Shown here piece by piece: positions 11,885 through 46,905 of a DNA stretch of 64,000 nt. The stretch comes from a virus (Duplodnaviria > Caudoviricetes), in IMG/VR virus record IMGVR_UViG_3300037504_000149; one strand, written 5' to 3'. Numbering within the stretch: the first letter of the stretch is position 1; each line of letters starts with the position of its first letter. The notes beneath the pieces were generated by a model, which had not been told where the DNA came from, did not search any database, and saw only the letters and a list, made by a program, of their open reading frames with translations. Position numbers and translations under genes: made by a program.

Positions 11885-12157
11885 GGAAGAAGTGAAGAGT
11901 AGGAGGGGGAGGCACGATAGTTATAAGAGATACAAGGGAGGGGAGGGAGTAGTTGTAGGAGAGACAGGAGGGACACAGGGGAGAGATGAGGTAGGGGAGG
12001 ATAGAGTTAGGAGGGAGTAGTTGTAGGAGGGGGAAAGCTATGATGATGGAGGGGAGGGAAGTTAGAGGGGACATAGAAGGAGTATAGCAGGAGTATAGAG
12101 GGGGGGGGATTGTACTGCCTTCTGCGTCCCCCCGAATATCTACCCCCCTCTACCTCT

Positions 12158-12336
12158 ATTTTAACATATTTTTTATTAAATGTCAAGTGTCATCTTGCTA
12201 TATTATTAAAATCGAATATAAAATAAAATATACATTTTTTTTATTATAACATATTATTTATTAAATGTCAAGTAAAATCTTTTATTTTTTTATTTTTATA
12301 ATCTTTTATTATAACATATTATTTATTAAATGTCAA
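12158..12336 (-). promoter_or_regulatory. three tandem leftward consensus sigma70 promoters
   Basis: Minus strand TTGACA-N17-TAAAAT (12186-12158) and TTGACA-N17-TATAAT (12271-12243, 12336-12308), each with a TGn extended -10. Confidence 0.85.
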
Positions 12337-12359
12337 GTAAAATCTTAATTTTTTATTTA

Positions 12360-14000
12360 TTTTTATTATTCATACTTCCCTATTTATAATAATAATATCC
12401 TTATTTATAAACTCCGTAACTCCCCTATTATCAATAAGTTATAACTGGCCCCTATCGCCACTCAAGGCATACCATACCACCCCTAGAACCGATCGGCGCT
12501 CTATGGCCCGTTATATCGATCCTGAGCGAAAATGCGTAAATACGCATATGGAGCCAATTGATATACTGTCTCAGTGTGCGCAACGTCACACCTTCCAATA
12601 AATATCGTGTATCAATAAGCCTACTTTGTGATAAAAGCCCTTGACAACACTAATCTTTTATGTTAGAATCACGTTATGAGGGGCAGTGTAGGGGTTTATA
12701 CATATACTACACTCCCCACTATTCATATACTCAATACTACAATTACAATAATGGGGAGGTGTATTCATATACTAACTAATCCTTCCCCTATATACAACAT
12801 TGAATAATAGTAATCTTAATTAGCATCGTCGCATATGTATCTTTATTCATATGCTCCACCAGACATTACCTGCTACCAGTCTATTTATAATATGAATATC
12901 AAAACTTATAATTAAGTATGTTAACACTATACTTAATTATACCATATTCGCCTATTCTAAAATGGATTTTACAGAATAATCTAATATGAATATAAGAAGA
13001 ACAGGGGGAGGGACCAGATAATTACAATATGAATATAAACAATTCCCCACTTAGGGGTCTCTATACAGGAAAAATCCCCACTGCTATATGATTATTCCTA
13101 TGTAGAGAGTCGCTCTTTCCCCACTTATTCATACTACCAGCATTCATAACATGAATAAATGCAGGTATAGCAAGGGTCTAGGGGGTGGGGAATAAATAAA
13201 AGTGATATAAACCTTGTACCAATAGGGTTTTATAGTGATATAAACCCTTGCCGCACTAAGGTTTATAGTGATATAAACCTTGACACAAAAGAAGTTTTAT
13301 GTTAGAATCACGTTATGAGGGGGAGTGTAGGGGGAGTATATATAACTATATACGTATAATCGAATATCCAGAATAAAAAAAAACCCCCGGCGATAACACC
13401 GGGGGAAGGGGGCGGCTATGCGTCGTCAAGAGCACCGCGAGCAGACCAGACGGCCTGGGCGGCCCGAACTATGGCACTGCGGGCGGCGGCGGCAGGGTCG
13501 CTGGTGAGGTGTTTGAGGGCGTCAAGGGTGTTGTATGCATCGCAAATGTCGTTGATAGCGGAAGTGAGGGCGGCGGCGGCGCGGGCAGTGTTTCTCATGA
13601 TCTTCTCCCTTCTGCCCCGGTGGGGCGGTTGTTGATTGTTGTGAGACAAGTATACCATATAAACTAGAGGATTGTCAAGGGTAAAATTAAATAAAATAGT
13701 ACTTGACTTTAAGGGAGTTTTATGTTATCATCATGTTATGAGGGGGAGTGTAGGGGGAAGGGAGCGGGAGACGTTGAATAGTTACAATATGAATGGGGGA
13801 GTAGAGGGGAGCGGGAGATGTTGAGAGGATGTTGAATAGTTAGAATATGAATAGGGAGGAAGAAGGGGGGGTGATTATTCATATTAAGATCATTCTGAGA
13901 TTTTGCAGGGTATTTATATTATTGATATACCGTACAATCCCCCAATATACGCGCACAAAATTTTGCAACCCCCAATTTTAATTATTCATAATAATTATAT
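12360..14000. other. non-coding hub with IHF site and iteron-like repeats (candidate origin or terminus region)
   Basis: IHF consensus TATCAATAAGTTA at 12429-12441; about 12 copies of TATTCATA/TATGAAT; AGTGATATAAACC x3 at 13201-13280. Confidence 0.45.
13416..13598 (-). CDS. small Ala-rich helical protein in an inverted expression cassette
   Basis: Minus strand TTGACA (13678-13673), GCCCC hairpin, AGGGAG RBS, ATG at 13598; terminator at about 13375-13405. Confidence 0.7.
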   Translation of the reverse strand: MRNTARAAAALTSAINDICDAYNTLDALKHLTSDPAAAARSAIVRAAQAVWSARGALDDA

Positions 14001-14209
14001 TCTACCCCCCCCCTGCTCCTTCCCCTGCTCCCGTATTCCTCGCGCTATTATAATTCTACATACCTACCATAAAAGAGTTTAACATAAAACTTCCCTGAAG
14101 TCAATACCTATTTTATTCCATTTTATCCTTGACAAGTTTTCAATCCATATGGTATACTGCCTTCAGAAGATAAAAACGCCCCGGAGGGGGCATAACCTGG
14201 AAGGGAACG

Positions 14210-14410
14210 ATGGATAAGGAAAACTTTGATGTATTTTATGCGGCGGCGCAAGCTGTAGCAACACTTAAATCAGCTCGTGCCATTGCCTGTGTCGTTGACG
14301 CTGCTGTCCGTACAAAAGAAACACGGACAGCGCTGAATAAAATCTGTGATGCGCTGAAAACGATGGAATCGGTGCGAAACAGTAACCTAGAAACAATATA
14401 TTCTCGCTAA
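14210..14410 (+). CDS. cassette cargo, small helical protein
   Basis: Own promoter (TTGACA 14129), RBS and terminator. Confidence 0.75.
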   Translation: MDKENFDVFYAAAQAVATLKSARAIACVVDAAVRTKETRTALNKICDALKTMESVRNSNLETIYSR

Positions 14411-14422
14411 ACATACTACACC

Positions 14423-14450
14423 GCCCCGCTGGAATCCAGCGGGGCTTTTC
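14423..14450 (+). terminator. Rho-independent terminator (representative copy of the module)
   Basis: 10 bp stem GCCCCGCTGG/CCAGCGGGGC followed by a T-tract. Confidence 0.9.
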
Positions 14451-14655
14451 TTTATCCTGGATATTCGATTATTCTTATATCCTATTTTATATATTCCCCT
14501 TAGTCTTCCCCTTCAAACATAATGCTAACATAAAACTTACCTGAAGTCAATACCTATTTTATTCAATTTTATCCTTGACAATCTAGGAACTAGTATGATA
14601 TAATAGCTTTACAAGATTAGAAACGCCCGCAAGGCGGGCATAACAGGGAGGATAT

Positions 14656-14838
14656 ATGGAACGGACAACCTATATTGTTATCGGCGGCCAGCAGGTCGGC
14701 ATCACTGGCAACCCCAACGATGACCCGCTGTCCGCCCCGGCGGCCAAGGCGGCGCTGAAGGACTATCGCGCCCGCACCGGCCGGACCGCTGTCCCTATCC
14801 GGCTGGCCAATGGGACGGTATTCTCACGGGGATTCTAG
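14656..14838 (+). CDS. cassette cargo, hypothetical 60 aa
   Basis: Own promoter (14575), GGGAGG RBS and terminator. Confidence 0.75.
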   Translation: MERTTYIVIGGQQVGITGNPNDDPLSAPAAKAALKDYRARTGRTAVPIRLANGTVFSRGF

Positions 14839-15076
14839 GTTATTACGCCCCGCTGGAATCCAGCGGGGCTTTTCTATACCTTGTATATTCGATTATTCTT
14901 ATATCCTAATATATTCCCCTTAGTCTCCCCCTTCAAACATAATGCTAACATAAAACTTCCCTGAAGTCAAGACCTATTTTATTCCATTTTATACTTGACA
15001 ATCTAGGAATCCATATGGTATACTACTTTCAGAAGATGAAAACGCCCCGGAGGGGCAAAACTAGGGAGGGGAAAGA

Positions 15077-15328
15077 ATGGAGTATTTATTGCGTCTGACC
15101 CGCGCCCGATATAATGATATACCGATAGATAACATCGGGCAAGCTACGCGAATAAAGGTCAAGAGTATACAAGCCGCTAAGATAGCGGCAACAAGATGGG
15201 CGGAGCAAGTGGCAACACCAAACAAGCCCTATTGTGTCGTTATCTACACAATCGAGGGTACACCTATAATAAGAAAACACAGCTTTACTAAGAAATGGGC
15301 GAAAGCGGGAGAATTCTACTGTACCTAG
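15077..15328 (+). CDS. cassette cargo, basic hypothetical protein
   Basis: Own promoter (14995), RBS and terminator. Confidence 0.75.
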   Translation: MEYLLRLTRARYNDIPIDNIGQATRIKVKSIQAAKIAATRWAEQVATPNKPYCVVIYTIEGTPIIRKHSFTKKWAKAGEFYCT

Positions 15329-15563
15329 CATTTACCCCCGCTGGATTCCAGCGGGGCTTTTCTTTATCCTGGATATTCGATTATTCTTATATCCTAATAT
15401 ATTCCCCTTACTCTCCCCTTCAAACATAATGCTAACATAAAACTTCCCTGAAGTCAAGACCTATTTTATTCCATTTTATACTTGACACTCTAGGAACTAG
15501 TATGGTATACTACCTTCAGAAGATGAAAAGCCCGCATAGCGGGCATAACAGGAAGGGAAACGG

Positions 15564-15896
15564 ATGATTTACGAAGTTATTACTCGCGATGAACTCTATC
15601 ACCGTCTGAAGGGGTATAACGACGTATTCTCGTATGAGGGGGCTCGGATAATATACGATTATATTACCGAACTCGGCGATACGGAGCTAGACGTTCCCGA
15701 CATTCACGGCGGGTTTACGGAGTATTCCGATGCTGAGGAAGCGGCAGAGGACATTCTCCCCCCTGATGAGGTCGAGGAAATGCGGAAAGAATTCGCGGAA
15801 TTCCCCGGCCTTGATGATGAATGCTGGAAGGCGCTGGAGCGGGCCGGTGAAACAGTGCTGGGCTCGGCGTCCGGGCCTGTCATTATCGCGGAATAG
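15564..15896 (+). CDS. cassette cargo, acidic phage hypothetical protein
   Basis: FSYEG..I.DY..E....ELDV motif familiar from phage proteins; own promoter (15482). Confidence 0.75.
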   Translation: MIYEVITRDELYHRLKGYNDVFSYEGARIIYDYITELGDTELDVPDIHGGFTEYSDAEEAAEDILPPDEVEEMRKEFAEFPGLDDECWKALERAGETVLGSASGPVIIAE

Positions 15897-16130
15897 TTTT
15901 ATCGCCCCGCTGGTATTCCAGCGGGGCTTTTCTATACCTTGTATATTCGATTATTCTTATATATATTCCCCTTACACTTCCCCTTCAAACATAATGCTAA
16001 CATAAAAGTTCCCTGAAGTCAATACCTATTTTATTTAATTTTACACTTGACAATCATTTAATCCGTATGATATAATACCTTTACAAGATTGAAACGCCCC
16101 TACAGGGGCATAACAGGAAAGGGAAGGAAT

Positions 16131-16568
16131 ATGATTTACACCAATCTTGATGAAGCACGCGCCGCGAAGGCGGCGAGCGTAGCAAAGGCGCGAGAGCTGG
16201 AGTCCCGCGCTATCGAAGGTGAGGGGCCTACTTCCACCGAAGCCGAAGAAGTCAGGCATGAACGGTGGATCAAGGAAAACACCCTGGTTGTTACCAGGCA
16301 CGCAGGCCTGGTCGACTACATCAAAGAAGAGTTCATTTATCCCGCGTACCTGGCATCAGACGTGGTATTCTCTCACGTTGAGCAAAAGGACGTGGAGGGG
16401 AAGCACGTGGTTGGCATTTTGCCGCTCCACCTGGCCGCATTGGCAGATAAGGTGACGGTCATCCCCCTGAACCTGACCCCGGCGGATCGAGGTCAGGAAC
16501 TTTCCGCCGAACGGGTGCGGGAAGTGGCCGGTGACCCGGTAACCTACCGGGTCGAGCAGGTGAATTAG
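16131..16568 (+). CDS. Csx16-like protein (putative cyclic oligoadenylate ring nuclease)
   Basis: TLVVTRHAG...HV...VVGILPLHLAA...LNLTPADRGQELSAE..R...YRVE matches the Csx16 (VVA1548) pattern. Confidence 0.72.
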   Translation: MIYTNLDEARAAKAASVAKARELESRAIEGEGPTSTEAEEVRHERWIKENTLVVTRHAGLVDYIKEEFIYPAYLASDVVFSHVEQKDVEGKHVVGILPLHLAALADKVTVIPLNLTPADRGQELSAERVREVAGDPVTYRVEQVN

Positions 16569-16903
16569 CTCTCACTGCCCCGCTGGATTCCAGCGGGGCT
16601 TTTCTATACCTTGTATATTCGATTATTCTTATATCCTATTATATATATATATTACCCTAGTCTCCCCCTTCAAACATAATGCTAACATAAAACTTCCCTG
16701 AAGTCAAGAACTATTTTAATGTATCTAAAACAAGGCAGCACAAGGGTATATTTTAGTCGCCCGTAGAAGTGATATAACGGGCCGTAGATGGCCGTAAAGG
16801 GTGGCAGAGTGGTATAGTATACTTATCTATTGAACGGCCTTAAAATCGCCCTACGGGCATTATATGGAATATCAGGAAAGTTTAATATAGATAAAGTTTT
16901 CTC

Positions 16904-17140
16904 TTGACAGGGAGCAAAGGTTATGATATACTTCCCCCGTAAGATTGAGAAATAGATACCTGAAACGCCCCCCAGAGGGGGCATAAAGGAAAGGGGAATA
17001 AATGAAGGGTTGACAGCGATGGGGAAGTATGATATACTTCCCCCGTAAGATTGAAGATGTAGTAAACGCCCCTACGGGGCACAAAGGAAAGGGGCTAAAA
17101 TTAGGGGTTGACAAGGGTGGGGAAGTATGATATAATCCCC
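16904..17140 (+). promoter_or_regulatory. three stacked promoter/hairpin/RBS heads, the first two without cargo
   Basis: TTGACA at 16904, 17009 and 17108; the first head's RBS leads only to ATG AAG GGT TGA. Confidence 0.8.
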
Positions 17141-17569
17141 TTGATGAGCGTTACCTATAACACAGTATCATTTATTCACTAGAGTTAACAAGGGAGGGAG
17201 GCGCAGGATGAAACACTATCAGCGTAACATCCTGCTGGAACCCGGTTAAATCATCGGGGCGGAAAGTAAGTCGGCCCCGCCCCGGCTTTCCCGGGCCTTA
17301 ACATGGGATACACCGTAGACCTATTGTGATCAACGGTAAATCCGTTGTGACGCTCCCCCGGTCCCTAAACTATGGGGACCGGGGATTTTAGTATAGTTAG
17401 TTTATATTATAAGACTGCCGGACTGCCCACAAAAGAGTTTAACATAAAAGTTACCTGAAGTCAATACCTATTTTATTTAATTTTACGCTTGACATTCTAG
17501 GAACTAGTATGATATAATAGCTTTACAAGATTAAAACGCCCCGGAACGGGGCATAACAGGGAGGGAACG

Positions 17570-17782
17570 GTGTTTCACTTAAAATTCTACGACGGGACGA
17601 CCGGGAGTGCCGGTTGTTACGGGAGTTTTGATACGCTCGCCGACGCTATGGCTGAGTGTGATACCGTCCCCGGTTGCTCCGGGGAGTCAGGGTATGAGTC
17701 ATCCTCGTTGTATATCGAGGATGACACAGGAGAAGTTGTCGCATCCCTAGGCGCATATTGCGCCGGTTGGGTTGTGGGCTAG
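17570..17782 (+). CDS. cassette cargo, acidic hypothetical protein
   Basis: Promoter 17489, AGGAGG RBS, GTG start and terminator. Confidence 0.7.
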   Translation: MFHLKFYDGTTGSAGCYGSFDTLADAMAECDTVPGCSGESGYESSSLYIEDDTGEVVASLGAYCAGWVVG

Positions 17783-17967
17783 ATTTACGGCCCCGCTGAT
17801 ATTCTCAGCGGGGCTTTTCTTTTACCTTGTATATTCGATTATTCTTATATATATCCCCTTACTCTCCCCCTTCAAACATAATGATAACATAAAACTTTCC
17901 TGAAGTCAACCCCTAAATTTCCCTATTAAATCCTTGACATCTATCTGCTGTTTTGATACAATACTCG

Positions 17968-18140
17968 TCGAGGTGGCAGCCGCAGTAGGCGCAGGGAAGT
18001 TGAGACCCCTAGACGTAGGACTCCGGTCCCTGTATCCCCGCCGATCACGGGGTGCATGCGGGTGTCGGGATTGTCCGGGCAATCCCCAATCCCGCCCACC
18101 TTACATGAAACGGCCCCCGCTGGATTCCAGCGGGGCTTTT
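17968..18140 (+). ncRNA. candidate small structured RNA carried as cassette cargo
   Basis: TTGACA-N17-TACAAT at 17934, no RBS or credible ORF, GC stems (GCAGGGA/TCCCTGT, CCCCG/CGGGG, CGGGATTG/CAATCCCG), then the module terminator. Confidence 0.5.
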
Positions 18141-18348
18141 CTTTTACCTTGTATATTCGATTATTCTTATATCCTAATATATTCCCCTTAGTCTCCCCCT
18201 TCAAACATAATGCTAACATAAAAGTTACCTGAAGTCAATACCTATTTTATTCAATTTTATACTTGACAAGCTATAAACTAGTATGATATACTATCCCCAC
18301 AAGATTAGAAACGCCCCCGGAGGGGGCATAACAAAGGAAGGGGAAGAA

Positions 18349-18861
18349 ATGGGCTGGGATGGTAGGTATATGGATAACACTGTGAAAGCCCGTCAACGAG
18401 TGATGATGGAGACTGTCGGACTGATAGACTTGTCGGTCCGGGGCAATGAAGGGTACGCTGCAGTGAAACATCCCGATATGGAGGCCGTGTTTTGTATGAT
18501 CTTCATTTTCCGGTATTCTGAAGGGGAATTGTGTACAAAGACCTGTACGGAGCTTGACGGCCCGTTTTGTTGGAATTGCCCGCAACGTATTATGAAACAG
18601 CTCACTGCGCCGCTGAACGAGCGGGCGGCGGATTGGCGCGATGCTTGTCGGCTCGCTGCGAAGTTGCGCAAAGCGCGTTATGTTTATCTGGAGCGGTCGC
18701 CGCATGGCACTGACATACGCTTAGTGGAAAAGGTGGCGAATGCTCGGAGTGTTTACCGTGAGATGTATACCGGTGAACTATGGCGGCTGCGCGTTAACAC
18801 TATGATGCACTACGGCGCTCGTCCAGTGGATAAGGACGAAGCCGAGGCGATGTTACGTTAG
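18349..18861 (+). CDS. DUF6927-like mobile-element protein
   Basis: E.DGPFCWNCPQRIMKQLT...AADWRDAC motif. Confidence 0.6.
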   Translation: MGWDGRYMDNTVKARQRVMMETVGLIDLSVRGNEGYAAVKHPDMEAVFCMIFIFRYSEGELCTKTCTELDGPFCWNCPQRIMKQLTAPLNERAADWRDACRLAAKLRKARYVYLERSPHGTDIRLVEKVANARSVYREMYTGELWRLRVNTMMHYGARPVDKDEAEAMLR

Positions 18862-19088
18862 ATTTACCGCCCCGCTGGAATCCAGCGGGGCTTTTCTTTA
18901 TCCTTTATATTCAATTATTCTTATATATATATTCCCCTTAGTCTTCCCCTTCAAACATAATGCTAACATAAAACTTCCCTGAAGTCAATACCTATTTTAT
19001 CCAATTTTACACTTGACAAGCTATAAACTAGTATGATATAATAGCTTTACAAGATTGATAGCAGTTAACATTAAAAGGGGAGGGCTCC

Positions 19089-19958
19089 ATGCGTGTTGAT
19101 AAGAAAAAGGAAAAGGTACTCACACACTTAGAGGATATTTTATCGGCGCTGAAGAATGACCCGGCGGCGCTGAAGCGCTTGTCGTGGATTAAACCGTGGA
19201 GTAACCCACCCCGTAACTTGGCCGGGCGTCAATATAACGGTGGTAATGTACATATTCTGAACTTTGCCTCCGTCGTTAGTAGTTATAAGCATAATAGGTG
19301 GGGAACGTTCAATCAATATAAGAAGTATGGGGCCAGCATTATTAAGGGCTCCAGTGCGACGCCTATCTATTACTATAATGTAAAGAAATACACTAAAGAA
19401 GATGAGAATGGAGAGGAAAAGGAATATACTTATTATGTGTTTAAGTATTTTAATCTTTTCAATATCGCACAAACGACATTGGAGATTGAGCGGCTCCCCG
19501 GCGTCGAGTATAAAGAAGTAGAATATACCACACCGGAACGAATCCGGAGGGGATATTGTGACAATGGCGGCCCGGAGTATCAGGAATCCGGTGACCGTGC
19601 CTTTTATCGGCCCGGAGGGGATTTAGTCTGCTTGCCGCCCCGCGAAACATTCCATTCATCAGCGGAGTATGCCAGTACGCTATATCATGAACTGGTGCAT
19701 AGCACCGGGCATGAAAAGCGGCTGGACCGGGGATTTAGCTTGTCTCGGGGCGGGGAAGGGTACGCCCTAGAGGAACTGGTCGCAGAGACTGGAGCGCTAA
19801 TCCTTTGTGACCGGAGCGGTATTAACCCGGACGTGAATAACTTCAAGGCGTATATTGCTAGCTGGCTTCAGGCGGTAAAATCTGACCAGCGTTACAAAAC
19901 TTTCTCCGCATTGTCACAAGCGGAGAAGGCCGTTGACTACATTCTAGGGGAAAGGTAG
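19089..19958 (+). CDS. ardC: ArdC-like antirestriction/ssDNA-binding protein with zincin domain
   Basis: WIKPW, RQYNGGN, WGTFNQ, FNLFNIAQ, AFYRP, HELVHSTGH..RLDR, YALEELVAE, AYIASW. Confidence 0.9.
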   Translation: MRVDKKKEKVLTHLEDILSALKNDPAALKRLSWIKPWSNPPRNLAGRQYNGGNVHILNFASVVSSYKHNRWGTFNQYKKYGASIIKGSSATPIYYYNVKKYTKEDENGEEKEYTYYVFKYFNLFNIAQTTLEIERLPGVEYKEVEYTTPERIRRGYCDNGGPEYQESGDRAFYRPGGDLVCLPPRETFHSSAEYASTLYHELVHSTGHEKRLDRGFSLSRGGEGYALEELVAETGALILCDRSGINPDVNNFKAYIASWLQAVKSDQRYKTFSALSQAEKAVDYILGER

Positions 19959-20039
19959 ACTTTCCCCTTGACATTATAGAGCATTTTATGGTACTATTGC
20001 CTTAGAAGATTGAAAAACAAAACAAGGGAAGGGGAAAAC

Positions 20040-20612
20040 ATGGCCACGGGAAACTTTCACTATCATACGAATTTGTGTTATGCTTTGCCTGATGACGGTC
20101 CAAACGTATTAGAAGATGCGTTAGATCGTATAAAGGTCGAAGCGGCCCGTATGGGGTTGACGCTGGAAAAGTACCTAGCACCGGAAAAATTCGATACAAA
20201 ATCATACGGTCGGCACTATTATACTCACCTTGCTGAGTATAGTGTAGAACAGCCGTATTATGGCGGGTTCATTACTGTTTCTGCTGGTATTGGCGTCCGT
20301 GCTGGATACTATACTGGTGGATGCTATGACTGCTGCATTATTGCAGAGTTTTACGGCAGTAAGATAGCTGATAGTCACTACGATGACTCCTATACGGATG
20401 TAGATGAGATTGAGGAACTTTTGCTAGAATGTAGCGATGTACCAAAGGGTTTTATTCAGCACGCTGCAATTAAGGTGCGGGATAAAGCCGATGAACTGAT
20501 TGATGAGGTAGAAGATACGACAAACCGCTTACTCGCTGCCGCTGCTGAAGTGAAACTGGCTTGTCTAGGCTCGGCCAGTAACGGCGAGACGTTTTATCGG
20601 AAGGTGGATTAG
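20040..20612 (+). CDS. acidic phage hypothetical protein
   Basis: Own promoter (TTGACA 19968); MATGNF...SNGETFY. Confidence 0.7.
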   Translation: MATGNFHYHTNLCYALPDDGPNVLEDALDRIKVEAARMGLTLEKYLAPEKFDTKSYGRHYYTHLAEYSVEQPYYGGFITVSAGIGVRAGYYTGGCYDCCIIAEFYGSKIADSHYDDSYTDVDEIEELLLECSDVPKGFIQHAAIKVRDKADELIDEVEDTTNRLLAAAAEVKLACLGSASNGETFYRKVD

Positions 20613-20723
20613 GTTAGATAGGGGAAAGCATATGCTTTCCCCTTGACTTTCACGTTGTCTTATGGTACAGTTGTCTTAGAAGATTAAACAACGCCCCGTC
20701 GGGGCATAACTGGGAGGGAAAAG

Positions 20724-21353
20724 ATGAAACTGTACAAGCGTAACGGCAAGATGTACCTTGCCGTCGAAGGACAAGAGATTGAGATAGCCGACATTCGAGA
20801 CGCTGTTAAGGCGCTCGGCGGTACGGTCGAAACGTCAACCTATCGCAAAGTCGAGCTGTTTCATGATTACGATTGTCCTAATCCGCTGGAGGGTGATTCG
20901 GAAGTTTTCATCTATCATAAGCGGAATCGAGAGTTTGAAGTCGGTCAAGATATTGAAGCGGCTGGCGGCTTCGAGGGCGTCCGAGAAGCGCATCCCGATG
21001 CTGTTATCGCGCCCCTGTACGCATACGTGCATTCTGGCGTGTGCTTCAGTACCAAGTACACCTATCCTTTCACTTGTCAATGGGATGCTGGATTGACGGG
21101 TTGCATCGTCGGTCCGAGTAAAGAAGCGATTCTTGGCGCTATCGAGGAATTGAATCATTATGTAGCAGGGAACTGCTACGGATATGAGGTGCAAGATGAA
21201 TGGGGTGAGGTGCTGGATTGTTGTGGCGGTTTCTGGGGATATATCGACGACGAACTTTTGAAGGAATATGCGATGGCGCATTGCCCCGACCCGGAGAACA
21301 TGGACGTTGTTTTTAGCGACCCCTTCGGCCGAGAAGAGAAGGTTGAGTGGTAG
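20724..21353 (+). CDS. conserved mobile-element hypothetical protein
   Basis: LYAYVHSGV...CQWDAG..G and CCGGFWG motifs; own promoter (20643) and hairpin. Confidence 0.7.
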   Translation: MKLYKRNGKMYLAVEGQEIEIADIRDAVKALGGTVETSTYRKVELFHDYDCPNPLEGDSEVFIYHKRNREFEVGQDIEAAGGFEGVREAHPDAVIAPLYAYVHSGVCFSTKYTYPFTCQWDAGLTGCIVGPSKEAILGAIEELNHYVAGNCYGYEVQDEWGEVLDCCGGFWGYIDDELLKEYAMAHCPDPENMDVVFSDPFGREEKVEW

Positions 21354-21463
21354 GTAGGATAGGGGAAAGCATATGCTTTCCCCTTGACTTTACCGTTATC
21401 TTGTGGTATACTTGAGGCAACGTAGCATTGAGAGTAACGTTACATCAAAGGGAAGGAAAAAAG

Positions 21464-21610
21464 ATGATTATGTCACTGAAGATGCGTGCGGAGGCCGCCG
21501 AGAAAAAGGCCGCCGAGTATGCGGCTCGCGATCAGAATGAGGCCAGTGCGGAAATGCACCGCCGCGCCGAGGCTATCCGACGCCGGATGGACCGGGAAGC
21601 GGGGAGGTAA
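21464..21610 (+). CDS. small helical protein
   Basis: Promoter at about 21384, RBS, ATG. Confidence 0.5.
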   Translation: MIMSLKMRAEAAEKKAAEYAARDQNEASAEMHRRAEAIRRRMDREAGR

Positions 21611-23559: not shown

Positions 23560-24075
23560 ATGAGTAACATTATTAACGTAGTAAACAAACCTAACATTTA
23601 CCTAGTTGGCATTACGTTAGGAACGGGAGATTATTTTACGCATAGCGGTAGGTATGCGGAAATCGGAGACCTGAAGCAATACCGTCAGTCTTTACTTGAC
23701 GATTACCATAATGGAGCTACTTATTTAACGTACATTTATAGTGTAGATACTTTGGCAACGATCCCCCGTCATTACTATACCGGACCCTATCTTATTCAGT
23801 CAGTCGAAGATTTAGAGGATAACTTGGATTATCTGATGGGATTGGGTATGGTATGGGGCAAGTATGGTAGTGACTTTCTACTGATGGAGAGCGACGAGAA
23901 TGCCGAAGCATGGGCTGACGCGACGGCCCTTCGCATATCTGATGAATCGCCGTATGACGACGATACTAAAGAGCTGCTACGGGAAGTGCTGTCTAATGCT
24001 CTGCTTAATAATCCTGGGCAGCTTATGCGGTTGATTGGGACTGAGATTATTGAAGAGAATTACTTTAATGAGTAA
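23560..24075 (+). CDS. acidic hypothetical protein
   Basis: GGAGG RBS. Confidence 0.65.
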   Translation: MSNIINVVNKPNIYLVGITLGTGDYFTHSGRYAEIGDLKQYRQSLLDDYHNGATYLTYIYSVDTLATIPRHYYTGPYLIQSVEDLEDNLDYLMGLGMVWGKYGSDFLLMESDENAEAWADATALRISDESPYDDDTKELLREVLSNALLNNPGQLMRLIGTEIIEENYFNE

Positions 24076-24151
24076 CTTTACACTTGACAACCTACCATAC
24101 TCTATGGTAGAATATGGGTAGAAACGATAAACAAAGGAAGGGGAAAGGGAT

Positions 24152-24665: not shown

Positions 24666-25001
24666 ATGAGTCGGTATTACCGTATGAGTTTCGAGATCAC
24701 GGGGCATGACGATAAGAAGCAGGAAGCGATCTGCTCCGTTGTGAGCGATGCCTACGGCATCGATATGTTCCCTGATGGTAAGGGAATCTACGGTAGCGGG
24801 GAGTATACTCTCGCTGGTGGACAGACTGAGGATGAGTTCGCTCAGGAGGCTACGCTGCTGGTATGGAAGGCCAACGGCAAGCCTTGCCGAGTAAGTATTA
24901 TGCAGTATTATTTGGAAGACCCGCCGTGTACACTATATGAATACACTGAGGACGATGGGGCTATGCTGTCCTTGTATAAAGCCCAACAGAAGGAGAGTTG
25001 A
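24666..25001 (+). CDS. hypothetical protein
   Basis: AGGAGG RBS. Confidence 0.7.
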   Translation: MSRYYRMSFEITGHDDKKQEAICSVVSDAYGIDMFPDGKGIYGSGEYTLAGGQTEDEFAQEATLLVWKANGKPCRVSIMQYYLEDPPCTLYEYTEDDGAMLSLYKAQQKES

Positions 25002-25380: not shown

Positions 25381-25409
25381 CTTTACGATGAATGACTGCT
25401 ATACTGTTT

Positions 25410-25570
25410 ACGGTATCCGCTAGGTTCCCCTTCCCTACCTGGCGGCGGGCGCAGGGGACGAGATGCCCTGTCGGGTGCGCCGTATCTACCCGAGACCTAA
25501 ATACGGTAGCGACCTGTCGCGCTGAGTCGGCAGGAAGTATGGGGGAGTGGCCCTCCCCACTCCCCCTAAA
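25410..25570 (+). ncRNA. candidate structured RNA or leader with two consecutive pseudoknots
   Basis: Promoter TTGACT-N17-TATACT at 25377-25405; pairings listed under findings. Confidence 0.5.
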
Positions 25571-25592
25571 CTTTCCTAAAGGAGATGTATGT

Positions 25593-26801
25593 ATGACTGT
25601 TAAGCAGTTAAAGAAGATTTTGGATACGCTGAAAAAGTTCTATATGTGGTATAATTGCGGATATTACGCGCTTACGTATACGCGGGTTGAGGTTACGCCG
25701 CTAGGCACAATTTTCGACTTCCTACACAAGGATCGTAGGTTGCGAATTATTACAGAAGAAGAGACGCCGCAGGAACATTGTGGTGAGGTGTACCTTGATG
25801 AAGAGCGTACTAAAACGCTTAAACGGTTGCTTACCAAGAAGTCTACTAAGGATGGCATTACACTAAGTATTAGTAATGATAAGCTAGTGGTAGCTTTCAA
25901 AAAAGGCGATTATAAATTTTCATCTACGCCACCTAAAGATACAAGCGGTTTTGAGGATGTGATAAGTGCATGGAGTAATGCTGCGCACTATGAGCGGGTG
26001 AGCTTGTCTGGTGCGGAGTGGTATAATGAGGTTACACGCATAGGTAAAGTGTGTGCGAAGGACAATGAAAATCGCGAAAAGCTACACTATGTGTACACGC
26101 ATTATTGGGATGGTAAGTTGCGTCTTGGTGCTGTTGATGGACACCGTTTAGTTGACAAGATTTATCGTCCTTTTGCTACAGTTGACACTGCTGATGCTTA
26201 CTTGCACAAGAACGATGTGGCGCTTATCGGAACTGTGTGTAAGAAAGCTGATAGCGTAGATATATGTTATCAGATGAATAGCAGTAAACAAGAAGGAAAC
26301 CGTGATTATGTACTGCGTACATACTATGATGGTATTACTACGTTGGTGTACGGTCCCGCCGCAGAGATAGAGGCACCGTACTGGCAAGAGTTTAAGCAGT
26401 CGCAGACAGGATGGTATGAGGCGCTCCTTGTGGAAGGTGAACGTCTATACACTACAATTGACTTAGCACGTATGGAAGCTGCGTTGAAGCACGTTATACC
26501 ATTGGCGCGTATGAACAGCGATAATAGGGTTAAGTTGACACTGGGTTGTGACATTACGGTGTCTACAAGATCGTGGAATGATGACGTAGCTACCTATACT
26601 ATAGAACATAATAGTAAAGACCTAGGAGCGCGAGTAGTCTACATTAACGGTGTAGAATTACTTGAGCAAGTACAGTTTCTAAAAGTGTTGGGGTTTGAAA
26701 CGACTGAATTGTCTGTTAAAGATGGAGATGAGTCGTTAACTGCGGTAGTCCTAGAGGTGCCGGATTGCGTGTTTTTACAACTGCCTATGCGGGCACCCTA
26801 A
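25593..26801 (+). CDS. divergent DNA sliding clamp (DnaN beta)-like protein
   Basis: LGAVDGHRL, YINGVELLE and terminal LQLPMR echo the beta-clamp motifs ATDGHRL, FN..YL and LIMPMR; about 400 aa. Confidence 0.55.
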   Translation: MTVKQLKKILDTLKKFYMWYNCGYYALTYTRVEVTPLGTIFDFLHKDRRLRIITEEETPQEHCGEVYLDEERTKTLKRLLTKKSTKDGITLSISNDKLVVAFKKGDYKFSSTPPKDTSGFEDVISAWSNAAHYERVSLSGAEWYNEVTRIGKVCAKDNENREKLHYVYTHYWDGKLRLGAVDGHRLVDKIYRPFATVDTADAYLHKNDVALIGTVCKKADSVDICYQMNSSKQEGNRDYVLRTYYDGITTLVYGPAAEIEAPYWQEFKQSQTGWYEALLVEGERLYTTIDLARMEAALKHVIPLARMNSDNRVKLTLGCDITVSTRSWNDDVATYTIEHNSKDLGARVVYINGVELLEQVQFLKVLGFETTELSVKDGDESLTAVVLEVPDCVFLQLPMRAP

Positions 26802-27988: not shown

Positions 27989-28129
27989 AGGACTTTTCCT
28001 AGTTAGTCCTAAAATAAACTAGGTGGTGGACCTCCGCATGAATGCGGTTTGCCCCTTGCCACCCCTCGATCTTTGTGGCAGTGTCCCGTCGAAGCGAGGG
28101 ATAGACGGGAACAACTATACAGAGGGAAT

Positions 28130-28597
28130 ATGAGAATTACTATTATAGATGATATGATTAGTCGTTTAGAGCAGTTTGAAGAAAACTTACCTAAAGGACA
28201 TACCGTTCGTACACCTTTGGACCTAGAAATTGCAGAGGTTACAAAGGGGTGTATTGAAAATACTTTAATGTGTGGAGAAGTTTTACTAGAGGAAGGTTGT
28301 GATGTATTATATTTAGATCATGACTTCGGACCGGATACTTTACAAGGCGCGTATGGCGGTGTCACGTCAGGTACTGGAATGGATTTATTGCAAGGGATTA
28401 TAAAAAACTTGCTGCCCTGCCCTACTTGTGCTATAATTGTACATAGCGCAAACGTTCCGGCAGCGATTCAAATGGTTGCTAAGGCGCAGGTGCTTGATAT
28501 TCCAGTAGTTAAAATGTGGGCACCATGGGCTGTTAAAGGTTGTAAATTAACTTCTGTTATCAACGAGGATAATAATGATAATATGGGAACTACCTGA
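28130..28597 (+). CDS. cyclic-phosphate-processing receiver-like domain protein
   Basis: LYLDHDFG, TGMDLL and IIVHSAN motifs. Confidence 0.7.
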   Translation: MRITIIDDMISRLEQFEENLPKGHTVRTPLDLEIAEVTKGCIENTLMCGEVLLEEGCDVLYLDHDFGPDTLQGAYGGVTSGTGMDLLQGIIKNLLPCPTCAIIVHSANVPAAIQMVAKAQVLDIPVVKMWAPWAVKGCKLTSVINEDNNDNMGTT

Positions 28598-31544: not shown

Positions 31545-31929
31545 GGGGCTGATAAGGGTTCGACGTGCGAGTAAAAGTGAGGTAGCATCCCGTGGTTGGT
31601 CTCTAGGCCACGTAAAAAAGAGACCAAACAACAACAGCCGAAAATGCTGTTCCCTTGGCTGCTTAAAAAGCCGCTCCTCTATGGAGCTAGGCTCGTAGCC
31701 CGCCCCCGGAAAGGTTTCTCTGCACCTGACTGGATAAGGCGTCAAAAAGCAGGGGTCCGACTTGGAGTTACCTAATCGCTCCTAAAAGGACTACAGAGTA
31801 ATTAGGTAGGGTGCGCGAGACTGTGCCGTATCAGCCGGACCGCACCGACACGACATGATACGGCTATGGATGTAGATGCCGAAGCGGCACTTGACACGGA
31901 CGCGGGTTCGATTCCCGCCAGCTCCACCA
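31545..31929 (+). ncRNA. ssrA: tmRNA; tag (A)AENAVPLAA*
   Basis: 5' GGGGCTG pairs with 3' CAGCTCC-ACCA including a G3:U pair; T-arm GGGTTCGATTCCC; tag ORF 31637-31666; promoter TTGACA-N17-TATCAT at 31501. Confidence 0.95.
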
Positions 31930-37182: not shown

Positions 37183-37398
37183 ATGAGACACCACTTCAAA
37201 CAACCCCAGGATAAGGATGGTAAACCTATCCACATTCAGCAGAGAGTTGCAGTAGACTCTACTCCTGAAGACGTTTGGAAAGGTGGTTTCTCAGGCACGG
37301 TCATTAGAATTATCAGTACCTTTAAGGTTACGGTATCTGATTTGAAGGGTCATGCCTTTGATGTACCTGCACACAAGACAAAAGTTTTGGAAGGTTAA
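37183..37398 (+). CDS. small SH3-like barrel protein
   Basis: DKDGKPIHI...FSGTV...V.DLKGHAFDV. Confidence 0.55.
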   Translation: MRHHFKQPQDKDGKPIHIQQRVAVDSTPEDVWKGGFSGTVIRIISTFKVTVSDLKGHAFDVPAHKTKVLEG

Positions 37399-37399
37399 A

Positions 37400-38140
37400 A
37401 TGAATGATGCTCTAGGTGATCGTATGAAGAAGTATGAGAATACTACAAGGTATTACCTACCTCCCCGTACACCTATCATTATTAGAGTAGATGGTAAAGC
37501 CTTTCACACTTATACTAAAAATTGTATAGAACCATTCAGTAATGTTCTAATAAACATAATGAATGAAGTTGGGTTACATCTTTGTGAGAATATCCAGGGT
37601 GCTGAACTAGCATATATTCAAAGTGATGAAATTTCTATATTAGTTCATTACTATAAAAAGTATACTTCATCTGCATGGTTCGATAACAACTTGCAGAAGC
37701 TGGTAAGTGTTTCAGCTAGTCTAGCTACAGAAGCATTCATTAACAGTTTGATGCGGCGTCCCATCGCTTGGCAGTCACAGTTTGGTGGTAAAACACCTAA
37801 CTTTGATAGCCGAGCTTTTTGTATACCAGTAGCGGACGTATGCAATTACTTTATCTGGAGGCAGAAAGATTGGGAACGTAATAGTTTGCAACTACTAGCA
37901 AGAAGTTTATACTCTCATAACGAATTACACGCTAAGAAGCGTGATGAATTGCACGATATGTGTATAGCTAAAGGTAATAACTGGAACCAGCTACCAGGGT
38001 ATTATAAACGAGGTAGATGTGTCAAGTTACTTTGTAATACTGATACTCCTGTTACTAAACGAGAGTGGGTTGTAGAAACTCCTCCCATATTTACTAAAGA
38101 TAGAGATTACGTTGAAGAACATCTGTTTGTTGAACAATGA
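37400..38140 (+). CDS. thg1: tRNA(His) guanylyltransferase Thg1-like protein
   Basis: LGDRMKKYE, IRVDGKAFH, YIQSDEIS, FDSR, NYFIWRQ.D..RNS. Confidence 0.92.
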   Translation: MNDALGDRMKKYENTTRYYLPPRTPIIIRVDGKAFHTYTKNCIEPFSNVLINIMNEVGLHLCENIQGAELAYIQSDEISILVHYYKKYTSSAWFDNNLQKLVSVSASLATEAFINSLMRRPIAWQSQFGGKTPNFDSRAFCIPVADVCNYFIWRQKDWERNSLQLLARSLYSHNELHAKKRDELHDMCIAKGNNWNQLPGYYKRGRCVKLLCNTDTPVTKREWVVETPPIFTKDRDYVEEHLFVEQ

Positions 38141-45166: not shown

Positions 45167-45983
45167 GTTTTAACGACTTCTGCGGTGTGCTTGTGCATCT
45201 CCCTGGTAGCTTCTTGGGGTTTTTGTATCGTTTCGGAAGTTTTAACGACTTCTGCGGTGTGCTTGTGCATCTCCCTACAAAATACATCATCGGTTGGCCT
45301 AAGTTGTCCTTCTGTTTTAACGACTTCTGCGGTGTGCTTGTGCATCTCCCTATATAGAAATCATGAACTCAGGAGGTTCACTATGAGTTTTAACGACTTC
45401 TGCGGTGTGCTTGTGCATCTCCCATACTGCATCGACCAGACACGCCTACCCTATCATTAGTTTTAACGACTTCTGCGGTGTGCTTGTGCATCTCCCTATT
45501 GGTAGTGAGACAGTGGACAAGGCCATAAATGGCCGTTTTAACGACTTCTGCGGTGTGCTTGTGCATCTCCCATACCATTGAGCCTGATCTGGTAGTGCTA
45601 TGCCTCATTGTTTTAACGACTTCTGCGGTGTGCTTGTGCATCTCCCAGCATAGTAAACCTCCTGAGTTCATGATTTCTATATAGTTTTAACGACTTCTGC
45701 GGTGTGTTCGTGCATCTCCCCTGCTGCTACATCGGTCCTAACACAGATCAAAGGGAGTTTTAACGACTTCTGCGGTGTGTTCGTGCATCTCCCCTGCTGC
45801 TACATCGGTCCTAACACAGATCAAAGGGAGTTTTAACGACTTCTGCGGTGTGTTCGTGCATCTTCCTATAGTAGAGAGTAGAAAGTTACATACATGGTCT
45901 CGGGTTTTAACGACTTCTGTGGTGTGTTTGTGCATCTCCCACCCTTCGCCATACACCTTCCGCAAAGTGTTTGTGTATCTCCC
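45167..45983 (+). CRISPR. CRISPR array: 11 repeats of 37 bp, 10 spacers (35-38 bp), degenerate terminal repeat
   Basis: GTTTTAACGACTTCTGCGGTGTGCTTGTGCATCTCCC at 45167, 45239, 45314, 45387, 45460, 45535, 45610, 45684, 45757, 45830, 45904; remnant ends at 45983. Confidence 0.98.
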
Positions 45984-46011
45984 AGCCCTCTCACCCATCC
46001 CAAGGAACGAT

Positions 46012-46905
46012 ATGTCTCTTCGACGATTAGGTATCTACCATAGAGTAGATAATGATGGTTTTGCTTGTGCTGCTATTCTGCGGCATAGGTTTCCCTCCAT
46101 CGATCTTTTTGGGATGAATTATGGGGATGAAGAACCCCATTTCATTGAAGATTATGATCAGGTTTACATAGCTGATTTTTCTCTCCCCCCCAAGAGGATG
46201 CAGCATCTAAATTCATTAACTGAGATGCATTGGATCGATCATCATCAAACAGCTATAAATGATTGCAAAGATCTAGATTTACTAGGTTTACGTAAAATAG
46301 GAGAAGGTGCTTGTTCTCTCCTTTGGCAGTATTTATATCCTCACTACCCTGTACCTGAAGCTATACAGCTCATCTCAGACTATGATGTGTGGAATTTATC
46401 TGATACGGTTATACACTTTCAGTATGGTTTACGTCTGATGGGGGATATACGCTTAGCTGATGAAATTCCTGAGTTCGAAGGAACAGCTACTAAGGAGTGG
46501 CTAGATTACCAAAACCTCTCGTACTTTTGGGAAAACCTTCTCAGAGGCTCTCAGAGCCTCATAGACAGCTTAAAAGACGAAGGCAGTGTCGTATACCGTT
46601 ATGTACGCTCACAGCTTTCTAAAGCCATTAAACGGGGCGTAGCGATGTCCTTTCACGGACACGACGCCCTTTTTGTTATGACACCTGACAACCCCTCCCT
46701 TATGGCAGAACTGTGGAAAGATTATGATGTTTGCATCAAAGCTTTCTATGACCTTTCTGCTTCAAAGTGGAGGCACACCTTATTCTCCCACCCCGGCGGT
46801 CCTAATGTAGGTAAGCTAGCTAAGAAATACGGTGGGGGCGGGCACGAGCATTGTGCTGGGTTTATGTGGGATCACTTGGCGCTACATAAGAAACTAGCTG
46901 AGTAA
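46012..46905 (+). CDS. DHH/DHHA1 family phosphoesterase (NrnB-like)
   Basis: YH..D.DG, IADFS, WIDHH and GGGGH..CAGF. Confidence 0.9.
   Translation: MSLRRLGIYHRVDNDGFACAAILRHRFPSIDLFGMNYGDEEPHFIEDYDQVYIADFSLPPKRMQHLNSLTEMHWIDHHQTAINDCKDLDLLGLRKIGEGACSLLWQYLYPHYPVPEAIQLISDYDVWNLSDTVIHFQYGLRLMGDIRLADEIPEFEGTATKEWLDYQNLSYFWENLLRGSQSLIDSLKDEGSVVYRYVRSQLSKAIKRGVAMSFHGHDALFVMTPDNPSLMAELWKDYDVCIKAFYDLSASKWRHTLFSHPGGPNVGKLAKKYGGGGHEHCAGFMWDHLALHKKLAE

Follow-up and report, generated by a model that had tools for sequence, protein, structure and literature searches.

A composite intergenic module of ~230 bp recurs between 12.6 and 21.5 kb of the 64,000-nucleotide (nt) stretch of viral DNA that is analysed here (referred to below as the window, to which all coordinates apply unless a contig is named), and its copies are combined with a single, unrelated cargo each, or with none. 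The window derives from a JGI/IMG metagenome contig of 229,864 bp (IMG/VR virus record IMGVR_UViG_3300037504_000149; Duplodnaviria, Caudoviricetes), the source of which we take to be a large uncultured phage of ~230 kb. In our view the array is probably a set of exchangeable cassettes, located in a hyperplastic early-gene region of this phage and recombining via its modules, and thus of the type formed around PeSLs, i.e. the small composite terminator/promoter cassettes found in the hyperplastic regions of T4-type phages (PMC2839356, PMC4122927). The repeat, its anatomy, its mosaicism and the cassette differences in one relative are directly observed.

In the proposed scheme, every unit would be driven by a near-consensus host sigma-A promoter with an A+T-rich upstream spacer, such that host RNA polymerase may transcribe each unit on entry, independently of its neighbours, and every unit would be closed by a strong intrinsic terminator after its single cargo. 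As all units are separated by one and the same element, its copies could recombine homologously, either within one genome or between co-infecting relatives, and thereby delete, duplicate or exchange whole cassettes and leave their expression intact. With recombination of this type, the array would work as an exchangeable accessory or host-takeover gene set that includes at least two counter-defence genes.

A repeated expression module

An earlier note on this DNA, made from the letters alone, had described a recurring expression module, and the repeat indeed proves real: its copy number is well above chance as judged from the conserved block, the repeat families and the comparison with shuffled sequence. 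A repeat search recovers families of 7-8 copies of 76-178 nt within the array, as well as inverted copies at 13.3-13.8 kb, and the 19-nt block that is part of the module is matched nine times in the window (with at most 3 mismatches), where 0.11 matches are expected. Profile scans of the window place all module copies at 12.63-21.4 kb, the sole outlier being a weak promoter copy at 24.07 kb. The array contains 62 promoter-like and 24 terminator-like sites, as compared to 23 +/- 5 and 10 +/- 3.6 in shuffles, and 32 of the 42 strict host-type promoters in the window (i.e. those with a -35 box TTGAC[A/T] and a TG extension) fall within the 9.3 kb between 12.1 and 21.4 kb.

The terminator plus block is present in 9 copies (8 direct and 1 inverted), the reverse promoter in 13 (3 of which face a gene-less hub at 12.6-13.8 kb) and the canonical forward promoter plus leader in 10; there are ~6 diverged forward promoters besides, including the three in reduced modules (19947, 20620 and 21361). 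There are at least 14 units, monocistronic by sequence, and in two 'empty' units the promoter, leader, hairpin and ribosome site directly abut the next promoter. Eight full copies had been counted previously. All eight share the terminator, block and reverse promoter, but only six (starting at 14419, 14843, 15331, 15901, 18111 and 18865) add the canonical forward promoter and leader. The array was also thought to begin at 13280. In fact, the inverted cassette at 13759-13264 and the reverse-promoter copy at 12631-12699 place its left edge further out; the reported continuation of a reduced module to the right is correct. The remainder of the description stands: there are partial copies (those at 14076 and 17436 lack the terminator and block) and one complete cassette is inverted; the single cargos are mutually unrelated in an all-against-all BLASTP comparison; and the cassettes are self-contained, in that each combines a consensus host-type promoter, a leader, a strong ribosome site, one cargo and a terminator with a G+C stem of 9-11 bp.

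Anatomy of the module and its predicted expression

An alignment of 12 copies separates the terminator, block, reverse promoter, spacer, forward promoter, leader hairpin and ribosome site. At its 5' end the module starts with the intrinsic terminator (-18 to -24 kcal/mol, stem followed by a T-run), which is positioned ~150 bp upstream of the forward promoter. Between this terminator and the reverse promoter lie ~12 variable bases, the invariant block of 19-22 nt, a (TA)n stretch of variable length and a C/T-rich tract. The reverse promoter is located on the minus strand and directed toward the preceding terminator; it consists of a -35 box TTGACT, a spacing of 17 bp, a TG extension and a -10 box TAGCAT, or a variant of the latter in which positions 1, 2, 5 and 6 are kept. 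The gap between the reverse promoter and the forward -35 box is A+T-rich and measures exactly 24 bp in all pairs (9/9). The forward promoter (-35 box TTGACA, TRTG extension, -10 box TATAAT or TATACT) agrees with the consensus at 11-12 out of 12 positions, and is followed by a leader of ~50 nt that comprises a conserved A-rich start and a G+C hairpin, the pairing of which is kept via compensated changes at the fifth and sixth pairs. The leader ends with a GGGAGG-type ribosome site, followed by the start codon, and in promoter-initiated RNAs this ribosome site is predicted to be open (P unpaired 0.6-0.97).

Early promoters of the form TTGACW / TRTGN / TATANT have been mapped by RNA-seq in a staphylococcal Kayvirus (PMC7698491) and the forward promoters of the array are of the same type, which suggests that the host is Gram-positive and that its polymerase carries out the transcription. 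The timing of expression and the activity of the promoters and terminators we infer from such signals. A role of the C/T-rich tract as a specific mask of the ribosome site in read-through RNA was considered and rejected: the pairing is predicted, but shuffled upstream sequence pairs equally well, and the effect is therefore one of composition only.

Mosaic modules and probable exchange of cassettes

Comparison of the six full modules supports the notion that they are recombination mosaics of one another. Of the 325 pairs formed by their 26 informative sites, 182 do not pass the four-gamete test, and no fewer than 8 recombination events are required; a permutation of neighbour incompatibility yields p = 0.04. 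In concrete terms, the block separates an identical right-hand part from a differing left-hand part in modules 2 and 7, and the converse applies to modules 1 and 3. No integrase or other recombinase domain was found among the window open reading frames (ORFs) scanned, in agreement with the earlier note. As for the mechanism, which we infer from the comparison with PeSLs, homologous recombination would suffice for the shuffling, as has been proposed for those elements.

The mosaic pattern could also be taken to reflect an integron-like system, in which the 19-nt block would be the site for a site-specific recombinase encoded elsewhere in the 230-kb genome. After all, the block is identical in 7 of the 8 direct copies, with variable flanks, the module haplotype switches across it, and the array resembles an integron in having unrelated single-gene cassettes, a repeated element between them and exchangeable cargo. 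We nevertheless hold this highly improbable, for the block is not palindromic, not even imperfectly, there is no attC or attC-like structure, and the window ORFs scanned include neither IntI nor another recombinase domain; moreover, the cassette edges that can be observed are situated in reduced modules, which are devoid of the block, and a perfectly identical stretch is also a natural place for homologous crossovers. The array differs from an integron in its expression as well, since promoter and terminator are individual to each cassette and no Pc is shared, and exchange would proceed by homologous and not by site-specific recombination.

Only one related lineage was found, represented by the contigs L005 (13.6 kb) and L007 (1.2 kb) from short-read assemblies, with ~86% nucleotide identity, proteins that are 62-98% identical and synteny over 11 kb; an identical strain was seen in L004. 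Each of these three contigs breaks off within a module or a reduced module, which would be expected were the module repeated in those genomes too. Upstream of the gene for ArdC, L007 displays the same layout of reverse promoter, 24 bp and forward promoter, with a variant -10 box in the reverse promoter that is still promoter-like, and the module at this position is 92% identical between the phages, versus 87% for ArdC itself.

Within the shared 11 kb there are four differences in gene content between the window and L005. In the slot after ArdC, the window has a gene for 190 amino acids (aa) and L005 an unrelated 83-aa gene, and the promoter before the 190-aa gene is the orthologue of the promoter before a 208-aa gene in L005. 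With orthologous promoters before different genes, the genomes thus differ by cassettes, with edges in the stem-loop and leader. Secondly, a promoter repeat of ~50 bp that is found once in the window occurs twice in L005, where its copies flank an additional 98-aa gene. These two out of four differences show PeSL-type edges. The third is a 48-aa ORF that is present only in the window, with its junction at a repeated ribosome-site/start word, and the fourth an 87-aa gene that was lost from the window through internal deletion. The idea that cargo content changes among relatives, which the earlier note had put forward, therefore holds in so far as the cargo is not invariant and two differences have their edges in regulatory repeats, this being the outcome for one relative and for the distal end of the array.

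A number of these observations weigh against cassette exchange via the modules. Two of the four indels relative to L005 are not at modules, as they involve ribosome-site/start microhomology and the inside of a gene. The comparison concerns a single lineage and, of the array, only the distal end with its reduced modules. Four-gamete failures in a short and constrained sequence can be produced by recurrent mutation as well, the neighbour-incompatibility test giving no more than the above p value, and the orthologous module (92%) is not distinguishable from the best paralogue (94%); gene conversion since the split of the phages is unsupported. Finally, the PeSL model accounts neither for the fact that the reverse promoter is the most conserved element nor for the invariant 19-nt block.

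In view of the indels outside the modules, it could be argued that the repeats are purely regulatory, i.e. that the same strong promoter and terminator have been copied, or kept alike by selection, since all early genes require the same expression, and that genes were gained and lost by ordinary illegitimate recombination. That conservation resides in the functional cores (-35, -10, hairpin stems) would fit such a scenario, and so would purifying selection on the module between the two phages. It appears rather unlikely to us, because the conservation stretches over ~230 bp, past the promoter and terminator cores and into spacers that look non-functional, because the copies are mosaic and two cassette differences have edges inside the repeats, and because there are empty cassettes and a cargo of heterogeneous composition. 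Cassette exchange between modules thus remains the interpretation that we prefer.

Two further observations were made on the relative. The extra 98-aa gene (L005:4920-5216) is a paralogue, with 33% identity, of the window gene at 24666-25001, and looks like a tandem duplication together with its promoter. The 469-aa ORF at 25392-26801, which weakly matches a sliding-clamp-like phage family, corresponds to two separate genes of 96 and 264 aa in L005:6787-7904, and an exhaustive search of 1.8 billion representative proteins for the 469-aa protein returned the L005 lineage only.

Searches for additional relatives were negative: GenBank phages gave no match by megablast of the region or by tblastn of two window proteins; scanning IMG/VR with the block motif and two proteins yielded chance matches only, without similarity to the window; a scan of JGI metagenomes with the reverse-promoter/spacer word gave one chance match; and a scan of a genome collection with the terminator plus block gave none.

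The reverse promoter and the invariant block

The -35 box and the extended -10 box of the reverse promoter are the only invariant columns over all 12 aligned copies, inverted and partial ones included. The 24-bp spacing to the forward promoter is kept even in module 6, the spacer and forward promoter sequences of which differ, and the predicted start of the reverse transcript, consisting of two G-runs, is conserved in 13/13 copies, i.e. also in the three that face the gene-less hub. From there the predicted RNA would continue through the invariant block and the terminator hairpin, after which there is no T-run in the reverse direction; apart from the terminator hairpin, no conserved structure, covariation, ORF or Rfam match was found for it. 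Six of the leader hairpins are scored as intrinsic terminators if the minus strand is read. A reverse transcript that crosses a cargo would consequently stop at the leader of that cargo, and each cassette would be bracketed on both strands.

Our leading guess is that the reverse promoter provides strand-symmetric insulation, where head-on occupancy would counteract read-through and the leader hairpins would act as minus-strand terminators. Supercoiling coupling between the divergent promoters is possible, and the reverse promoter could alternatively exert antisense control over the upstream gene, yield a multicopy purine-rich RNA, or take part in recombination or replication linked to R-loops. 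The strictly spaced back-to-back promoter pair and the leader hairpins that look like terminators on the minus strand together suggest two-strand insulation, and the design may serve as a synthetic-biology part.

A more far-reaching option is that the reverse promoter is the very purpose of the module, either because it yields a multicopy purine-rich RNA of ~90 nt, a possible regulator or decoy, or because it generates R-loops across the G-clusters and the A+T-rich block that prime replication or stimulate recombination, with the gene-less hub at 11.9-14.1 kb plus the array as an origin or terminal region. All conserved traits mentioned above (the invariant boxes, the spacing that survives a change of spacer, the G-run start and the promoter-like -10 variant in the relative) argue for it. 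Set against these are the lack of conserved structure other than the borrowed terminator hairpin, and of covariation, ORF or Rfam match in the predicted RNA, the missing T-run, and the fact that nothing links the hub to replication, and we regard this option as improbable. We likewise give only a slim chance to the module being an active device, in which the reverse promoter, the G-clusters and the A+T-rich block would form R-loops or a poised polymerase at the joints, thereby insulating both strands and providing hot spots for recombination or replication priming. If true, the phage would carry a self-driven and recombinase-free cassette-shuffling system.

The cargo

The protein cargo consists of 13 ORFs of 48-289 aa, with a G+C content of 0.44-0.64; several of the proteins are very acidic. 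Merely 2 of the 13 belong to a family of known function. The first is ArdC (19089-19958), with matches to PF08401 (74 bits), PF18818 (117 bits) and phrog_7245 (2e-61). The second is a Csx16-like protein (16131-16568) that scores 61.6 bits for PF09652, the cut-off being 25, and that is matched by three PADLOC Csx16 models; a sequence search for a solved structure of it found none. A cellular Csx16 has been shown to be a ring nuclease specific for cyclic tetra-adenylate (cA4), and the family has been found in only 2 of 28,114 phage genomes (bioRxiv 10.1101/2024.09.24.614671). Given this activity, the strongly promoted phage protein is, by analogy to AcrIII-1, a plausible inhibitor of type III CRISPR signalling.

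For the other eleven protein cargos, neither a family of known function nor a homologue outside the lineage was found in a search of 5.8 billion proteins, in which the 170-aa cargo matched only itself and the 209-aa cargo one relative. PHROG and Pfam scans of the cargos returned only ArdC, Csx16 and one family of unknown function, and no known host-takeover family. In exact look-ups the cargos occurred on the source contig only, ArdC and the 190-aa gene excepted. A deliberately mixed profile of six small cargos retrieved only the window's own proteins, which is a weak negative as its sensitivity for a 75% relative is doubtful. Structure models of the 110-aa and 209-aa cargos (predicted local distance difference test scores of 44 and 43) were too low in confidence for use, and atlas neighbours were uninformative. 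The two RNA cargos (17143-17390 and 17969-18110) matched no Rfam family, with only sub-threshold look-alikes of terminators, and neither gave a match to a transfer RNA (tRNA).

In the earlier note the cargo of the array was proposed to be anti-defence. The ArdC and Csx16-family proteins fit that proposal; as regards the other eleven proteins, their context is what suggests such a function, as is true for most cargo functions put forward here. Nonetheless, some eleven strongly promoted ORFans and two RNAs that lie beside ArdC and a rare phage Csx16 would be reasonable first candidates in a screen for counter-defence or host takeover.

Features of the array and its surroundings

The coordinates of the array are collected in Table 1. 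Elsewhere the window shows long runs of small plus-strand genes, and it encodes a transfer-messenger RNA (tmRNA), a tRNA, a TnpB-like protein, DNA methyltransferases, and Thg1-like and cREC proteins; phage hallmark genes were not found in it. A set related to RNA repair and translation rescue is located at 28049-28597, 31545-31929, 37352-38140 and 45775-46905, comprising a cREC_REC protein, a phage tmRNA that is closely preceded by a consensus host-type promoter (31501), a Thg1-like protein and a DHH phosphoesterase.

Table 1. Array elements and cargos in the window, from left to right
Feature	Position	Strand	Remarks
Isolated reverse-type promoter	12631..12699	+	-35 at 12641, -10 end 12669; G-rich initial transcribed region
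Inverted half-module	13264..13405	-	minus-gene terminator 13384-13405; diverged block 13348-13366; reverse-type promoter reading + at 13280-13308
Cargo, ~60 aa, G+C 0.64	13416..13598	-	ORF open to 13658; ATG at 13598 favoured by ribosome site
Inverted forward promoter + leader hairpin	13602..13759	-	promoter 13678 to 13649; back-to-back partner reads + from 13703
Partial module without terminator or block	14076..14209	+	reverse promoter 14104-14076 (-); forward promoter 14129-14158; leader hairpin; ribosome site
Cargo, 66 aa, ORFan	14210..14410	+	
Full module 1	14419..14655	+	profile scan E 1e-77
Cargo, 60 aa, G+C 0.64, ORFan	14656..14838	+	
Full module 2	14843..15076	+	alignment, profile scan
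Cargo, 83 aa, basic, ORFan	15077..15328	+	
Full module 3	15331..15563	+	alignment, profile scan
Cargo, 110 aa, very acidic (net charge -21), ORFan	15564..15896	+	low-confidence structure model
Full module 4	15901..16130	+	alignment, profile scan
Cargo, 145 aa, Csx16 / Cas_VVA1548 domain	16131..16568	+	domain at residues 53-141; N-terminal extension of ~50 aa
Module 5: terminator, block and reverse promoter, without forward promoter	16573..16720	+	
Three tandem forward promoters (16904, 17010, 17108)	16895..17140	+	first two with leader hairpin and ribosome site, no gene ('empty' cassettes); first has a residual 3-codon ORF reading into the next -35
RNA-type cargo with 13-codon ORF behind strong ribosome site	17143..17390	+	own terminator 17356-17384; fold z -4.2
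Partial module without terminator or block	17436..17569	+	
Cargo, 70 aa, GTG start, acidic, ORFan	17570..17782	+	
Module 6: terminator (one compensated stem pair change), block and reverse promoter	17785..17962	+	differing forward promoter 17934-17962, predicted to drive the next RNA cargo; no leader or ribosome site
Structured non-coding RNA cargo, ~140 nt	17969..18110	+	closed by terminal stem; fold z -3.4
Full module 7	18111..18348	+	alignment, profile scan
Cargo, 170 aa	18349..18861	+	phrog_21047 (unknown function)
Full module 8	18865..19088	+	one substitution in block; leader without hairpin
Cargo, ArdC-type anti-restriction protein	19089..19958	+	ArdcN and zincin peptidase domains
Reduced module 1	19947..20039	+	8-bp G/C-A stem-loop abutting -35; promoter; leader without hairpin
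Cargo, 190 aa, acidic	20040..20612	+	not in relative L005 (unrelated 83-aa gene in slot)
Reduced module 2, with leader hairpin	20620..20723	+	
Cargo, 209 aa, acidic	20724..21353	+	L005 homologue 74% identical
Reduced module 3	21361..21463	+	
Cargo, 48 aa, G+C 0.63	21464..21610	+	not in L005; junction at repeated ribosome-site/start word
Outlying promoter repeat	24074..24122	+	two copies in L005, flanking the extra 98-aa gene

The left end of the array displays several peculiarities. At 11885-12370 there is a non-coding tract of ~225 nt that is nearly pure purine on the plus strand and rich in GGAGG-type words. It is situated immediately downstream of three tandem consensus promoters that read leftward (12186, 12271 and 12336), each of them in a 65-bp direct repeat, and the predicted leftward transcript of the tract would be C/U-rich, with more than 10 anti-Shine-Dalgarno-like words and no credible ORF. 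At 13703-14104, two reverse-type promoters converge on a gene-less centre of 320 bp, which is first G-rich and then C-rich (mirror symmetry). The first outward genes beside this centre, at 13598-13416 (-) and 14210-14410 (+), have a short motif in common (BLASTP E 4e-5), which suggests an old inverted duplication at the origin of the array. A 14-nt word occurs three times at 13200-13280, immediately left of the 13280 promoter, and throughout the gene-less hub at 12700-14000 the words TATGAATA/TATTCATA are very frequent; the invariant block of the module has two related GAATA words. The 14-nt, TATGAATA/TATTCATA and GAATA words are possible candidate sites for a DNA-binding protein.

Comparison with known systems

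Antisense RNAs that originate from convergent promoters at the ends of phage genes are represented by lambda OOP and P22 sar. As in those cases, the reverse promoter of the module is located downstream of a gene and would fire back into its 3' end. The arrangement in the array, however, recurs 10 times with a sequence that does not depend on the gene faced, and the transcript is a predicted one.

SPO1's host-takeover module is made up of small early genes whose promoters and ribosome sites are very strong, 26 genes being organized in ~12 operons (PMC6873191). The array is similar in being a ~10-kb cluster of small and presumably early genes with strong sigma-A promoters and ribosome sites, which would be read by the host polymerase and which run in both directions from a hub. 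It deviates in having one gene per promoter instead of operons and a long homologous intergenic module, which has not been described for SPO1, and according to the PHROG and Pfam scans no cargo is homologous to SPO1 gp37-gp60 or to other known takeover proteins.

The closest counterpart is found in the PeSLs, as known from the phages RB49/phi1, PST/T4 and nt-1/KVP40 (Arbiol et al. 2010, PMC2839356; Comeau et al. 2014, PMC4122927). Recombination between PeSLs explains insertions, deletions and replacements among close relatives, and it yields mini-circles (PMC2839356, PMC4122927). At the sequence level the array appears to have every feature by which PeSLs are recognized. Both combine a terminator stem-loop, an A+T-rich stretch, a near-consensus early promoter of the host type and a ribosome site, both are found as multiple copies in hyperplastic regions rich in ORFans, with degraded or empty copies among them, and in both the elements delimit indels and replacements between close relatives (here in 2 out of 4 differences with one relative). 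The reduced module, with its G/C stem-loop abutting the -35 box, is almost the RB49 PeSL design. The comparison with PeSLs that was drawn from the start is thus apt, in terms of composite design, mosaic modules and cassette differences with edges in regulatory repeats; the novelty claimed along with it was overstated, as the principle has already been published (PMC2839356, PMC4122927).

The differences concern lineage and elaboration. The array belongs to another phage lineage, without detectable similarity to GenBank phages and with promoters of a Gram-positive type (TRTG extension). Its full module measures ~230 bp instead of ~100 bp, as the terminator is separated from the forward promoter by the invariant block and a second, divergent promoter, and a covarying leader hairpin and RNA cargo come in addition; mini-circles are known for PeSLs and hypothetical for the array. 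What is new is the second promoter, set back to back with the forward one; this pair, the ORFan and RNA cargos and the invariant block most merit further study, and nothing is surprising in kind. The array would extend the PeSL idea, namely that regulatory repeats can act as the seams along which genes are shuffled, from T4-type coliphages to an unrelated phage of ~230 kb with Gram-positive-type signals, and this with great regularity, each module being paired with one gene.

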